This document shows, one piece after another, positions 51,744 through 54,933 of a DNA stretch of 64,000 nt. Location of the stretch: NCBI GenBank assembly GCA_007375645.1, contig VMER01000003.1, positions 10,008-74,007 on the forward strand. The letters are read 5' to 3'. A program made the position numbers and the translations under genes. Origin of the DNA: Parcubacteria group bacterium LiPW_15 (GTDB lineage: Bacteria; Patescibacteriota; Minisyncoccia; UBA6257; 2-01-FULL-56-20). How positions within the stretch are numbered: position 1 is the first letter of the stretch; every line of letters begins with the position of its first letter. The notes beneath the pieces are model-generated. The model did not search any database and was not told the origin of the DNA. It worked only from the letters and a program-made list of their open reading frames with translations.

Positions 51744-51794
51744 ATTATGGGGCCAGCTACACGAAAGCGCAAAGAAAAGAAGAAAGGAGCTGTC

Positions 51795-52358
51795 GTGAAA
51801 AAACTGGTTCTGGGCATAGTCGGAGAAAAGCGGGCGGGTAAGGACACCTTCGTCCGTATTTTCGCCCGACTGCTGAAGAAAAAGGGCGTAACCGTCTCTA
51901 CGCACCACTTCTCCGATACCATTGCCGCGTGTCTAACCGAACTCGGCCTCGAGTTAAGCCGGGAAAACATGCAAAGCTTCCCGGTGCTCATCGAGGCCAA
52001 GTACGGCAAGGGAGTTTTCAGCCGGGCAATGGCGAGAAAGGTAAAGAAGGACGCGGCGCGCATCGTGGTCATCCAAGGCATCCGCTGGTGGACCGATGTC
52101 GCGGCGCTCAAGGCTCTGCATGGGACCCTGATCTACGTGACCGCCGACAAGGATGTCCGCTTTCGGCGGTCCGTCGCCGATTCCGAAAAAAAGGATGAGG
52201 CGGGAATGACGCGCAGGAAATTCGAGAAACAGGAACGCGCGAAGACGGAGATCTACATCCCGCAGATCGCCGCCCGAGCGAATTTCCGTTTCGAAAACAA
52301 CGGGGCTGAAAGAGAGCTCACCCGCGCGATCCGTAAGTTCGTGAAGGAACGTTTCTAG
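51795..52358 (+). CDS. P-loop nucleotide/nucleoside kinase-like protein
   Basis: GTG start preceded by AAAGGAG; Walker A GIVGEKRAGKDTF; ~187 aa. Confidence 0.4.
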   Translation: MKKLVLGIVGEKRAGKDTFVRIFARLLKKKGVTVSTHHFSDTIAACLTELGLELSRENMQSFPVLIEAKYGKGVFSRAMARKVKKDAARIVVIQGIRWWTDVAALKALHGTLIYVTADKDVRFRRSVADSEKKDEAGMTRRKFEKQERAKTEIYIPQIAARANFRFENNGAERELTRAIRKFVKERF

Positions 52359-52401
52359 GGACTCAAGCCTGTCTCGACGCAAAGTCGGGATGGGCTTTTT
52401 C

Positions 52402-53098
52402 AAATATAAAAAGAGCCCCCGAGTGCCGAAGCACCGGGGGCCAAAGAACACAGGACCGTTCGCGCAAGCTTTGTGCGGGGAAGGGCGTCGTTTATGCTCT
52501 TGCTGGAAAGAGCCGTCGATCGCCGCTTCGCTTTTAGTGCGCTCGGTCGCCCCTTGAGGGGCACGGGCATCGCCGTTCGTTCTATCTCACGACAGTACGA
52601 ACGTGGCCTTGTTGGTCGAGCCGTCGCAGGCTCGCGCAGACGGAGGGAGTGCCCTCCGACAATCTCGCGTTCGAACGGGGAGTCCGCTAATTGAAACCAC
52701 TCACGGTTTTTTCCTCCGGCTCGATGTTTTGCGATTGGCGCGAAGTGGGGGGTGCTAGACGAAACCGCTCACGATTCCTCCTTCGTGTGCCGCAGACGCG
52801 GAGAGGCATCGCACGCCCCTCCGCCGAATGAGAGTAGGAGGTTGGTGGCCGCTACGTGAAACCGGACATGGTTCCTCCATGTGGCTCTCTACCGTCCGCG
52901 CCCGCCAGTCGTCGGGGGCGCGAATTACTCATTCTCCCTCGCAGAACCCCGAAGACCACGATGGTCCCCGAGAGTCGGCTCTTTTTATCGCCTGCGGACT
53001 TTTGCCGCGCGCGACATGAGCTCGCGAGGGGGCTGAACCTGTTTCCCGTCGAAGCCACTGGGGCATCCGACGGGCTATTCAATTGGGAATGTTCAAGG
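52402..53098 (-). ncRNA. candidate ~700-nt GC-rich structured non-coding RNA with three tandem SD-hairpin/pentapeptide mini-ORF modules
   Basis: A near-consensus promoter sits immediately upstream on the minus strand; a UUCG-tetraloop hairpin plus U-run terminator lies at 52402..52441; many internal hairpins; the three mini-ORFs are at 52853..52870, 52755..52772 and 52688..52705. Confidence 0.45.
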
Positions 53099-53104
53099 CT
53101 TGTA

Positions 53105-53132
53105 TTATAGCACCCCCGTTATATTTGTCAAC
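53105..53132 (-). promoter_or_regulatory. near-consensus sigma70 promoter driving the candidate ncRNA
   Basis: Minus-strand reading TTGACA-aatataacgggggtgc(16)-TATAAT, directly downstream of the rpiB stop. Confidence 0.5.
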
Positions 53133-53140
53133 CCCGTGTT

Positions 53141-53611
53141 CTAAAACTGGTCTGGACCCATATTCTCCCTTTCAATTTCTAAAACTTTTTCGAGTCTCCG
53201 CCTAAAACGCTCTTCTTTTTCGTCAAACTTCGTTTCTAAAAATATTTTAACCATATTCCTCGCCAGCCCGGGATCGGTAAAATCTGCGGCAAGGCTTAAG
53301 ACATTTACGTTGTCGTCATGTCGCGCATCAAAAACTTGATCCGGAGAAATTCCCAAGACAGAACGAATGCGTTTGAATTTATTTGCCACGATGTCCGCTC
53401 CGGAACCCGAAGCACAGATAATAATACCCGTGCTTTGTTCCAGGTTTCTTGAAACCTTGACCGCTACAGCTTTGGCGATATCCGGATAATCATCGCCATC
53501 GGAAAAATTGGGAGCGACATCCTCCACCTCATATGCTCCTTCAACTAAATATTTTTTTAAAGATTCTTTAAGTTCGAATCCCCTGTGGTCGGCTCCAATA
53601 TAGATAACCAT
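53141..53611 (-). CDS. rpiB: ribose-5-phosphate isomerase B (RpiB/LacAB family)
   Basis: 156 aa; MVIYIGADHRGFELKE...IIICASGSGADIVANK typical of RpiB. Confidence 0.8.
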   Translation of the reverse strand: MVIYIGADHRGFELKESLKKYLVEGAYEVEDVAPNFSDGDDYPDIAKAVAVKVSRNLEQSTGIIICASGSGADIVANKFKRIRSVLGISPDQVFDARHDDNVNVLSLAADFTDPGLARNMVKIFLETKFDEKEERFRRRLEKVLEIERENMGPDQF

Positions 53612-53767
53612 ATAGATAATTATACTCGGCAGCGAGGATGCAGGGAAATGCTTGTATTTCCGTGTCAGCCGAGAGAACCGAGCATATAAATACGAAGTAT
53701 TTATATAGACTTTGGCGCCTTAAAATGGAAAACCCCGCCGGGGCGTACCCGGCGGGGAAAAGCGAAG

Positions 53768-54933
53768 TTACTGTTGCATCGGGGGGAATCTGTGGCTCGG
53801 ACCCGGCCACACTTTGAGACGGTTTGTCCGGTCGGGCGCGGAACGCGATGGAGTCGGGTTGAGGATGGAGCCGCTTGAGGGAAGCTTCGCGCAAACATCC
53901 CACGCCAGAAGCGGATTTTTGGGATCCTCCCAAACAACCCTGTGCATCACTCCGCCCTTCATGGTCCCGAACGGAGCGCGTTGGTCACCGTACAGATGAT
54001 TCTGCCACCACCAGCCGACCCAACCTGGGCCTTTGAGATACGAGTATATCTCGCGCTGATACCAGAGAGACGGATCAGCGGCCCTGATACCGAACACGAC
54101 CGGAGACCAGTAGCCGGAAACAACCAGAAGCCGCGGCTCGGTAACGCCAAGCTCGGTGGCGAGAGCGATCCACGTCCGAAGCACTCCGACCATGTCGTTG
54201 TCAAAGACCCGGTCCCCAAGTTGCCGTACGACCTCCGCGAGGTCTCCGGTCAGATCGAACTCCTGGACGGTATAAATCGAATACCCGCCCAAAAGTTCTC
54301 GTCGATCCGGCTTGGCCCCGCAGTACAACCAGTCGCACCACGGCATTGCTTGAACATATGCCCGGCCGGGGATTGCGCTGCTCCTGCCCCACTCGAATGT
54401 GGGGAAGCCGATCTCATCGTGATAATCGCGCAACTCCCAACCGTCAGGACCCCAGAACATGTCCTCGGCTTCGAGGAACGACTTGGCGATCCACTCCTCG
54501 TTTTCGAAAACTTCTCGAACCACCGAGTACTCGGCGGGCTTTACCGGCGCCTTCATGGCAACATAGCGGAGATTGCCGCTTCCGTCATTCGGCACGCGAT
54601 AGACCTTGAAGAATCCGCCCTCAGCATAGGGCAGGTCGCCACGGTCCACGCACTCGCCCCAAAGGCACTTGAAATATCCGGTCAGATGGAAAGGCTTTTG
54701 GTCGTTCCAGGTCTGTGCCGGAACGAGGTACTCCAGCATGTTGATGGTTTTGCCGGATGCCTCGCTTGGCCACGCCCTGGGGAATTTCGGATCATCATCC
54801 GAATACTGCCGCAAAGACTCCTGGGTGTCGGGGAACTCCAAGCTGACGACCTGAGCCACGGCCGAAGCGCCGACCATGAAACAGCCGATCAGACCAACGG
54901 TAGAAAGCGCAGCGCCTAGTCTTTTGAACATTT
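53768..54933 (-). CDS. secreted Trp-rich hypothetical protein (GC-rich)
   Basis: Start at MFKRLGAALSTVGLIGCFMVGASAVAQ (signal peptide) with RBS GGAGGAGAGGGAA; ~388 aa; noticeably GC-rich. Confidence 0.45.

Follow-up and report, generated by a model that had tools for sequence, protein, structure and literature searches.

What, if anything, is encoded in the GC-rich spacer behind rpiB of Parcubacteria group bacterium LiPW_15? We analysed a 64,000-nt stretch of contig VMER01000003.1 (positions 10,008 to 74,007 of the forward strand; hereafter the window, whose own numbering is used throughout). A sequence-only reading of this DNA had proposed that the spacer holds a large structured RNA not described before, flanked by a promoter and a terminator of its own and possibly with modules that engage ribosomes, and this core proposal is supported here by homologs, by covariation and by the lack of any Rfam match. 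Judging by its signals, the spacer is a real, separately transcribed RNA of ~690 nt on the minus strand, and we are highly confident that it belongs to a real, novel structured RNA family. For what the RNA does, our best reading is a dual-function, structured RNA that would engage ribosomes; its translation is predicted from the sequence, and we put the chances of this reading at about even.

The unit is delimited by the following features, in which mini-ORF stands for a very short open reading frame (ORF):

53104..53131, minus strand: sigma-70 promoter, TTGACA-16 nt-TATAAT, 12/12 match to the consensus.
52408..52441, minus strand: intrinsic terminator; its GC-rich stem has 10 bp and a single bulged U, its loop is UUCG and its tail CUCUUUUU.
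52408..53098, minus strand: predicted primary transcript of ~690 nt with 60% GC, non-coding save for the mini-ORFs, bounded by promoter and terminator.
53141..53611, minus strand: rpiB (PF02502), the upstream neighbour kept throughout the RNA family.

Both signals had been called before and are present as described. The -35 element TTGACA (53131-53126) is followed by a 16-nt spacer and a TG-extended -10 element (TGcTATAAT, 53112-53104), which would place the start of transcription at ~53098, and the terminator reads CCCCCGGUGC-UUCG-GCAC(U)CGGGGG, followed by the U-rich tail. The promoter-to-terminator unit begins 9 nt past the rpiB stop codon, and its end faces a convergent gene. The window shows no terminator specific to rpiB, hence transcription from rpiB may read through into the RNA. 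The RNA region is GC-rich, as claimed (0.60-0.62), compared to 0.42-0.50 in rpiB and in the genes for LeuRS and TatD. The minimum free energy (MFE) of the whole RNA is -308.6 kcal/mol compared to -270.3 +/- 6.7 in dinucleotide shuffles (z = -5.7), and this value, together with the covariation of two of its elements described below, bears out the description of a densely structured RNA. A 16-nt perfect palindrome GCACAAAGCTTTGTGC that had been reported from the interior does not exist; it is absent from the window even when 3 mismatches are allowed, and the actual sequence, GCACAAAGCTTGCGCG, forms an imperfect hairpin.

Neither a protein gene nor a known RNA accounts for this transcript. The gene caller, run on the source contig, placed no gene in the spacer, where ORFs are short and overlapping, and the concatenated six-frame ORF translations of at least 35 aa (1147 aa) had no relative among 5.8 billion proteins. 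The earlier statement that no credible protein ORF is present therefore stands, and a pseudogene or mis-called ORFs are ruled out by the same empty search. Rfam 15, whose families include OLE, GOLLD, ROOL, raiA and HEARO, gave zero matches at the gathering threshold across 52250-53250, and at E <= 10 the RNA region had two sub-threshold chance matches only, anti-hemB (17.9 bits where 49.5 are needed, terminator only) and EBER1 (13.9 where 50 are needed); seven related loci had no Rfam match either. Elsewhere in the window Rfam 15 found one LOOT RNA and three tRNAs only, and ARAGORN reported three tRNAs and no transfer-messenger RNA (tmRNA) over the window. This agrees with the earlier failure to recognise RNase P RNA, tmRNA, signal recognition particle (SRP) RNA or 6S RNA by eye. 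Literature searches returned no described Patescibacteria non-coding RNA (ncRNA) of such kind.

Other identities were considered and rejected. Against a phage link, blastn of the RNA found no match in phage records, and scans for the exact module pattern (a Shine-Dalgarno (SD) sequence with a pentapeptide ORF, see below), run ahead of the recognition of the family's conserved motifs, gave 3 matches in viral contigs and 9 in JGI metagenome contigs, all of them lone chance matches within coding sequence and with no nhmmer similarity to the RNA. Searches of viral sequences for the domain C pattern and for the MSGFT ORF likewise returned only chance matches, which the covariance model rejects (23.6 bits at best). 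A cis-regulatory leader, riboswitch or attenuator is ruled out by the strong terminator that ends the transcript and by the next gene, which is convergent on the opposite strand. In antitoxin RNAs of type III toxin-antitoxin systems (ToxI-like), repeats of ~34-44 nt follow each other regularly head to tail, and the gene for the toxin endoribonuclease lies downstream in the same orientation. Here, the modules are 27-31 nt long at irregular spacings of 97 and 68 nt, no co-oriented gene lies downstream, and the neighbouring gene has a small-molecule kinase fold.

A search with the window RNA alone suggested that it is an orphan, as nhmmer found no match in 60 rpiB loci from GTDB genomes. Syntenic homologs overturned this view, and the single-sequence search is evidently too weak for so fast-evolving an RNA. 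The homologs were traced through contigs that carry homologs of the neighbouring kinase-like protein (50-57% identical) and of rpiB, many of which have a gene-free gap of 0.3-1.8 kb behind rpiB. Homologous promoter-to-terminator units of 0.25-0.95 kb lie directly downstream of rpiB in 13 further contigs; the resulting 14 units from 13 contigs, some of them mutually close, stem from Liptonbacteria-like Paceibacteria (Patescibacteria, candidate phyla radiation (CPR)). The family loci, with their rpiB identity, are:

L079/L078: 96%.
L077: family locus.
L076: 85%.
L080: 82%, two units.
L089: 76%.
L083, L084/L085: about 70%.
L087, L003: 67%.
L004: 64%.
L002: 63%, two units.
L074/L075: 62%.

A TTGACAAAT...TGCTATAAT promoter of the form TTGACA(AAT)-N-TGNTATAAT heads 12/14 units, with a spacing of TTGACA-16/17-TGNTATAAT and placed just after rpiB, and a GC hairpin with a U tract closes every unit. 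Pairwise blastn links the window RNA to L079 (E 9e-13) in two blocks, one spanning promoter, leader and P1 and one reaching from the GGAGGG hairpin to GGCCACG, and links its domain C to L080a (2e-9) and L074 (6e-10). Over ~52935-52880 and 52545-52445, pairwise blastn detected no homolog of the window RNA in the family loci. Large indels made a MAFFT alignment of four full-length RNAs unusable, and sub-domains were aligned instead. The closest GTDB representative, L001, lacks the RNA: its rpiB is 92% identical and its flanks share ~80% DNA identity, and its rpiB and kinase-like gene are only ~140 nt apart. The RNA is also missing from L082 and L086, and in the remaining rpiB loci a gene follows rpiB directly. 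Judged by L001 alone, the spacer would have seemed unconserved in relatives and could have been taken for junk, as the sequence-only reading had considered, but the wider set has homologs in the same syntenic place, and their promoters and terminators are conserved. The short L001 spacer and a 12-nt inverted repeat had also prompted the idea of a mobile element inserted into the terminator hairpin; no element features were seen and the flanking RNA parts are conserved, and the idea was dropped.

The family is thus clade-restricted, positionally conserved, modular, dispensable and fast-evolving. The window RNA holds all of promoter, CUUGAAC leader, P1, long-range CCCUC../..GAGGG helix, domain C and terminator, and these core parts are common, in various combinations, to L074, L076, L077, L079, L080, L084 and L089. 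The H-type pseudoknot and the 5' AGGAGGUGAU element of most members are both missing from it. By this comparison the window RNA appears to be a derived variant that has lost the pseudoknot and the 5' AGGAGGUGAU element and in which the SD/mini-ORF module has been triplicated. Complete promoter-to-terminator units also stand in tandem after rpiB in L002 (835-2500) and L080 (3505-4315); in L080 one predicted transcript carries domain C and another the leader and pseudoknot, two units that are fused into a single RNA in the window.

The structural elements of the window RNA are:

53075..53096, minus strand: conserved single-stranded 5' leader CUUGAAC...GAAUAG, aligned with L079 and L077.
53045..53074, minus strand: hairpin P1, CCCGUCGG-AU-GCC-loop-GGC-UU-CGACGGG, with apical GAUGCC.
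53023..53030, minus strand: 5' arm CCCUCGCG of a long-range helix, partner 52943-52936.
52936..52943, minus strand: 3' arm UGCGAGGG of this helix, the same pairing as in the whole-RNA MFE fold.
52977..52988, minus strand: AUAAAAAGAGCC, perfect 12-nt complement of the terminator tail GGCUCUUUUUAU (52417-52406), 559 nt apart.
52617..52657, minus strand: hairpins GGAGGG-CACU-CCCUCC and CGAGCC-UGCGAC-GGCUCG with linker GUCUGCG.
52546..52614, minus strand: domain C, consisting of AAGGCCACG, a covarying hairpin, GGCGAUGCC and a second hairpin; the best-conserved core of the family.

Domain C has the family-wide consensus GGCCACG - hairpin - GGYGAUGCC - hairpin. From 6 sequences, RNAalifold predicts a structure of 19 pairs, and in 8 of these both sides have changed in a compensatory way. 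In this alignment 93.6% of the cells are paired compared to 78.6 +/- 3.0 in shuffles, and the covariation score is 0.291 compared to 0.114 +/- 0.031, a value reached by 0/500 shuffles; sliding the structure by 1-3 columns reduces the score to 0.03-0.12. A covariance model of the domain scores 84 bits (E 3e-16) at its sole match in the window and, in a search of 495 kb (window and 62 loci), recovers family loci only. For P1, an RNAalifold prediction from L077, L079 and the window RNA (W) contains 12 pairs, supported by 1 compensatory change and by 4 single changes that wobble pairing tolerates, and the G-U pairs of P1 are compatible with the minus strand only. Related 5' leaders are found in L003, L084, L080b, L083 and L089. 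Over W 473-534 the two-hairpin block matches L079 with 81.5% identity (E 9e-13), and its 20 pairs in an RNAalifold prediction with L079 and L077 are nearly invariant, with 1 compensatory change. The arms of the long-range helix co-vary by eye (CCCUCGCG/CGCGAGGG in L077, CCCUCAU/AUGAGGG in L076, CCUCAGC/GCUGAGG in L080b); this helix, the pseudoknots and the module hairpins were aligned by eye or by script on hand-picked arms. Pairing of AUAAAAAGAGCC with the terminator tail is an unproven candidate: L077 and L079 have GAAAAAG opposite CUUUUUC, with one compensatory change seen in sequence, and the pairing is not kept in L089.

The H-type pseudoknot of the relatives, GGYCC-[S2]-GGRCC-A-rich-[S2'], occurs in 12 instances with 12 different stem-2 sequences, all of them complementary (L076, L077, L079, L080, L002, L003, L004, L083, L084 and L089; e.g. 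L079 3777-3815), and no convincing copy was found in the window RNA. In the relatives AAUGAC(N)UAG, which can be read as a two-codon ORF with an SD, often stands before it. The window RNA contains three copies of the hexamer GAUGCC, in the apical loop of P1 (53062-53067), upstream of module 2 (52810-52815) and in domain C (52566-52571), and the hexamer recurs in relatives at equivalent places as GGYGAUGCC. Readings of GGYGAUGCC by eye as a kink-turn or a C/D box were rejected, since the needed GA·AG arrangement is absent.

What sets this RNA apart are its mini-ORF modules:

52852..52878, minus strand: module 1 (W1), GGAGGAA-CC-AUG UCC GGU UUC ACG UAG (MSGFT), ORF 52869-52852.
52755..52781, minus strand: module 2 (W2), (AA)GGAGGAA-UC-GUG AGC GGU UUC GUC UAG (fMSGFV; fM, formylmethionine), ORF 52772-52755.
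52687..52717, minus strand: module 3 (W3), GGAGGAA-AAAACC-GUG AGU GGU UUC AAU UAG (fMSGFN), ORF 52704-52687.

The three SD-pentapeptide units proposed before, MSGFT, (f)MSGFV and (f)MSGFN, are all found, with their three different Ser codons (TCC, AGC and AGT) and with SGF in all three copies. The pattern GGAGGAA-N(2-6)-RTG-NNN-GGTTTC-NNN-TAG matches three times in the window, where zero matches are expected by chance, and GGTTTCNNNTAG occurs three times in 64 kb, every time in a module. The spacing from GGAGG to the start is 4, 4 and 8 nt, and in each case five codons and UAG follow, so that all three modules have the layout of a minigene, with an SD, a start at functional spacing, an ORF of 2-8 codons and an in-frame stop. 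Modules 2 and 3, which share a 13-nt repeat, are window-specific paralogs that keep fM-S-G-F and vary in the fifth residue; module 2 is a lineage-specific paralog of module 1 with no ortholog detectable by blastn in family relatives. Module 1 has orthologs that encode the same peptide:

W1: AUG UCC GGU UUC ACG UAG, MSGFT.
L077, L079: AUG AGC GGA UUC ACG UAA, MSGFT.
L089: AUG AGC GGA UUU ACG UAG, MSGFT.

In each ortholog an SD lies 3-4 nt upstream, and the sequences differ only in Ser (UCC/AGC), Gly (GGU/GGA), Phe (UUC/UUU) and stop (UAG/UAA), i.e. by changes that are synonymous or from stop to stop. In simulations, the chance of retaining MSGFT across these 3 lineages is 3e-5 when the same numbers of substitutions are put at random positions and 4e-3 with observed positions and random new bases. 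In L076 the element reads AUG AAG CGA UUC ACA UUC ACG UAG (MKRFTFT); it differs from L077 by two indels that offset each other (+1/-1) and by a 6-nt duplication that keeps the frame, and an open 7-codon ORF survives although the peptide differs. L087 and L002a retain AAAGGGAAU or GAAACC, RUG and the hairpin. The hint of selection on the peptide is thus strengthened by the close members L077, L079 and L089, which keep MSGFT by synonymous codons, and does not extend to those farther out.

The module hairpins had been described as presenting the SD in a loop closed by covarying stems, and this holds in part. The arms ACATGG/CCATGT and CACGA/TCGTG exist, but the stem of module 3 is 3 bp only. In the MFE fold the SD-in-loop form is found for module 2 (CACGA-AGGAGGAA-UCGUG), whereas modules 1 and 3 form another hairpin with the start codon in the loop (GGAACC/GGUUUC with AUGUCC, and AAACC/GGUUU with GUGAGU, respectively). 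Helices do covary across relatives, but mostly as GGAAYC/GRUUYC and not as the SD-in-loop hairpin: W1, W3, L076, L087 and L002a favour GGAAYC-[RUG...]-GRUUYC, whose loop holds the start codon, and W2 and L077 favour an SD in or next to the loop and a start codon in the 3' arm. L089 forms the same hairpin as GAAUCC/GGAUUU, its A-U to U-A compensatory change falling on the third position of the Gly codon. Constraint at the RNA level and at the peptide level are both visible, and neither alone explains everything. Taken as a set, the three modules look selected as ORFs.

Across the family, SD-led starts are enriched. Counting all members, homologous sites included, we find 36 sites of SD plus AUG/GUG (14.6 +/- 3.9 in dinucleotide shuffles), 25 SD-led ORFs of <= 10 codons (3.9 +/- 2.1) and 8 of exactly 5 codons (0.39); five-codon ORFs in other members encode MPLAA, MFLAA, MPLIG and MGLCT. 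In 10/14 relatives, compared to 1.3 +/- 1.1 in shuffles, a stretch of 8-11 nt perfectly matches the complement of the canonical 16S 3' end. Such a stretch is missing from the window RNA, whose longest anti-SD complement is the 7-nt AAGGAGG of module 2 and which carries its three modules in place of it. In relatives a complement such as AAGGAGGUGAU lies 50-100 nt from the start (L003 4594-4603, L004 3604-3613); further loci with a complement are L076, L079, L080b, L083, L084 and L089, and in L003 (MPLAA), L083 (MPLIG) and L084 (MFLAA) it is followed by the five-codon ORF. The genomic background is poor in such signals. No SD-like motif is found at 25/33 called gene starts in six loci of the clade (the sample comprises window starts 53611 (rpiB), 56066 and 51747 and loci L073, L077, L079, L080, L083 and L087), and at several starts, rpiB included, a TATAAT/CATAAT box ends 6-8 nt before the ATG, which suggests that mRNAs of the clade are often leaderless. 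GGAGG occurs five times on the sense strand of the RNA (0.7 kb), compared to ~10 times before a start and a long ORF in 64 kb. Experiments in E. coli show that ORFs of 2-8 codons with an SD cause ribosome recycling on the message and the release of peptidyl-tRNA, an effect that grows as the ORF gets shorter (PMC2490762).

If the modules are selected as ORFs, the RNA probably acts by engaging ribosomes. The modules would be genuine ribosome-binding sites on a stable, abundant RNA that recruit 30S subunits and are translated as pentapeptide minigenes fM-S-G-F-(T/V/N), while the local hairpins, GGAAYC/GRUUYC or SD-in-loop, could gate access. In this way the RNA might titrate or condition ribosomes, or deliver a cis-acting nascent pentapeptide. 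Where mRNAs are mostly SD-less or leaderless, an SD-dense RNA may be a privileged partner of the anti-SD. Scaffold, transcription signals and conservation are computational results; ribosome binding, translation and a downstream effect are our inference. More speculative, and in our view rather improbable, is the narrower idea that the RNA is a chromosomal pentapeptide minigene array on a stable scaffold that acts on the ribosome itself. Nascent fMSGFx could then condition the exit tunnel, like laboratory-selected macrolide-resistance pentapeptides, or titration of the 30S anti-SD could shift the balance between few SD-led and many leaderless mRNAs in reduced CPR cells. Relatives might reach the same end by the 8-11-nt anti-SD complement and by two- to ten-codon ORFs beside pseudoknots.

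A number of observations weigh against such engagement of ribosomes. The enrichment counts include non-independent sites, and their p-values overstate independence; the anti-SD reference may differ from the host's own 16S 3' end; the test of MSGFT retention is post hoc and covers few orthologs. An SD-to-start spacing of 4 nt is short, and the 2 nt at the 5' AGGAGGUGAUG element are too short for a normal ribosome-binding site. Past the closest members the peptide is lost (L076 MKRFTFT, L087 10 codons, L002a ~29 codons), L074 has no module at all, and distant members keep the GGAAYC/GRUUYC hairpin with RUG in the loop. Because the hairpin is kept without the peptide, constraint on the RNA only accounts for much of the pattern, and the substitution by which W1 and L089 differ in the third position of the Gly codon doubles as a compensatory change within this hairpin. 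Local module hairpins are not unusually stable (z ~0, except L077 with -3.2). Finally, the absence of the RNA from L001, L082 and L086 implies that its function is dispensable.

It is therefore worth weighing what else the RNA could be. A purely structural, trans-acting orphan RNA in the manner of OLE, ROOL, GOLLD or raiA, whose SD-like runs, AUG/GUG and UAG are parts of hairpins and pseudoknot flanks with no translation, is the main rival and a serious possibility, though on balance we doubt it. The family is dominated by helices, pseudoknots and motifs other than SDs (GAUGCC, GGCCACG, AAUGAC), GGAAYC/GRUUYC is kept with compensatory changes in W1-3, L076, L087, L089 and L002a while the peptides differ, GGUGAUGCC reappears in domain C without SD context, and in the five-codon ORF of L084 a change of CCC to UUC preserves the GCC/GGC stem via wobble pairs. 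What a structural role leaves unexplained is that all differences in MSGFT are synonymous, including a switch of Ser codon family in an unpaired loop, that stops change to stops, that the L076 indels restore the frame and that starts lie 4-8 nt past the SDs in several independent module types. The conserved start and stop codons and the synonymous pattern are equally unexplained by a sponge of the CsrB/RsmZ type, in which loop-borne SD-like GGA repeats would titrate a CsrA-like or other SD-binding translational repressor, and which we regard as unlikely. CsrA prefers a GGA in a loop flanked by ACA..UGU, and under the SD-in-loop fold W1 (ACAUGG-AGGAA-CCAUGU) and W2 (CACGA-AGGAGGAA-UCGUG) resemble such a site; fast evolution, variable repeat number, dispensability and an own promoter and terminator are as in sponge RNAs. 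Yet 690 nt hold only 2-3 candidate sites, the MFE folds place most SDs partly in stems (W1 and W3 pair part of the SD, W2 presents GGA in the loop), and sponge RNAs do not have conserved long-range helices, pseudoknots or a covarying core like domain C. tblastn with CsrA of E. coli and B. subtilis found nothing in the window and the fetched loci, nor did tblastn for Hfq and Pth, results that are uninformative for so small a part of the genome.

That the spacer is non-functional, a decaying pseudogene or spacer with chance promoter- and terminator-like signals, is very improbable. The spacer of L001 is only ~140 nt long, L082 and L086 have no RNA, and large stretches of the window RNA (~52935-52880 and 52545-52445) lack a detectable homolog, as junk would predict, but promoter, terminator, leader, P1 and domain C are kept and covary though rpiB is only 63-96% identical, and neither the lack of any protein relative nor the fold z-score fits junk. 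Scarcely credible is a divergent known RNA missed by the models (RNase P RNA, tmRNA, SRP RNA, 6S RNA, a group I/II intron or a riboswitch leader). Patescibacterial RNAs are often divergent, and the pseudoknots and short ORF of the family are superficially tmRNA-like, but the Rfam searches of the window and seven relatives, even at E <= 10, and ARAGORN argue against it, an essential housekeeping RNA would not be missing from close relatives, and a leader or riboswitch would need a co-oriented downstream gene.

The ribosome-engaging reading also has to be set beside known systems. The properties of large orphan RNAs (OLE, ROOL, GOLLD, raiA) are summarised in part in PMC12286853 and are otherwise general knowledge. 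Like these, the window RNA is several hundred nt long and relatively GC-rich, has its own promoter and terminator, covarying helices and, in the family, pseudoknots, and it has no protein product and no function evident from context. It differs in having no covariance-model similarity to them, in its restriction to one Paceibacteria subclade, in rapid gain and loss of domains and in its modules of SD, start and mini-ORF. Such modules are not known from OLE, ROOL, GOLLD or raiA. With the bar minigenes of phage lambda and the E-peptide of 23S rRNA it shares the layout of a strong SD and a start followed by 2-8 codons and a stop, and the E-peptide minigene likewise has exactly five codons within a structured, stable RNA. 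Reportedly, in work of Tenson and Mankin from 1996-97, the five-codon E-peptide minigene acts in cis on the ribosome exit tunnel. In contrast, the minigenes here are in tandem, conserved across species and carried by a dedicated RNA that is predicted to be highly transcribed; MSGFx and the MPLAA-type peptides of relatives are unlike the published macrolide-resistance consensus, and blastn and the viral scans revealed no phage context. As in tmRNA (SsrA), where H-type pseudoknots flank a short ORF in a structured, stable RNA, 12 such pseudoknots are found in the relatives. The window RNA differs in having no tRNA-like domain, no convincing pseudoknot and peptides unlike degradation tags, in being dispensable, and in that its mini-ORFs have their own SD and AUG/GUG starts, both of which the tmRNA ORF lacks. 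Dual-function small RNAs (S. aureus RNAIII/hld, SgrS/SgrT, SR1/SR1P) are also structured RNAs of up to ~500 nt with a small ORF, but these ORFs are single-copy and 26-43 codons long, compared to five codons in triplicate here, and there is no homology; no base-pairing target for the RNA was found within the 64-kb window. CsrB/RsmZ share repeated SD-like GGA motifs, some of them loop-presentable, in variable number, and an own promoter and terminator, whereas the window RNA has few sites, a complex conserved core, and start and stop codons kept with a synonymous pattern. In its proposed mode of action it is closest to a dual-function small RNA or to a stable RNA that bears minigenes, in appearance to the large orphan RNAs, and it is a member of none. 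At the level of the sequence family it is new, as no Rfam model and no matching paper in the literature searched describe it.

Few bacterial ncRNAs exceed ~500 nt, and the characterised ones have generally turned out to be biochemically interesting. For Patescibacteria, the literature searched describes no such large ncRNA beyond housekeeping RNAs. The family reported here is a clade-specific RNA, predicted to be highly expressed, that displays domain shuffling, tandem duplication and loss, and its unusual feature is the presence of strong ribosome-binding sites and five-codon ORFs inside a structured RNA, in organisms that mostly dispense with SD sequences. Translation of the mini-ORFs would make it the first conserved minigene RNA known from nature apart from phage lambda and the cryptic 23S E-peptide, and would help to understand how ultra-small symbiotic bacteria control or shield their ribosomes. 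Even without translation the RNA represents a new structured class, suited to covariation-based modelling and cryo-EM.

The gene that faces the end of the RNA is given for context only:

51747..52358, plus strand: P-loop kinase-like gene, 203 aa, convergent.

The AlphaFold2 model of its product (mean predicted local distance difference test (pLDDT) 86.6) has its best PDB fold match in 3lw7 (template modelling (TM) scores 0.71/0.84), an adenylate-kinase-related protein of S. solfataricus; no Pfam family scored above threshold. The protein evolves fast, being 52% identical to its L001 ortholog compared to 92% for rpiB. It is identical to a protein of Parcubacteria group bacterium LiPW_15, and the relatives of rpiB likewise point to Patescibacteria/Paceibacteria. 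A functional link between the RNA and this gene was rejected, since the fold is that of a generic small-molecule kinase and the gene is absent beside the RNA in seven units (L080, L083, L084, L087, L002-L004). A second structured RNA lies in the same window, a full-length LOOT RNA (RF03000, 1228-1345, minus strand) with 90.9 bits at a gathering threshold of 46.4. The source contig (L073) differs from the window by one mismatch and by an extra tandem copy of ~80 nt in the spacer at ~53630-53770, which separates rpiB from a 387-aa hypothetical gene and contains a strong terminator-like hairpin (53757-53733). GC content is heterogeneous at 51900-53100 and 53700-54900, where blocks of ~0.59-0.62 stand among genes at 0.42-0.50; these high-GC blocks correspond to the kinase-like gene, the RNA and the 387-aa hypothetical protein, which looks secreted.

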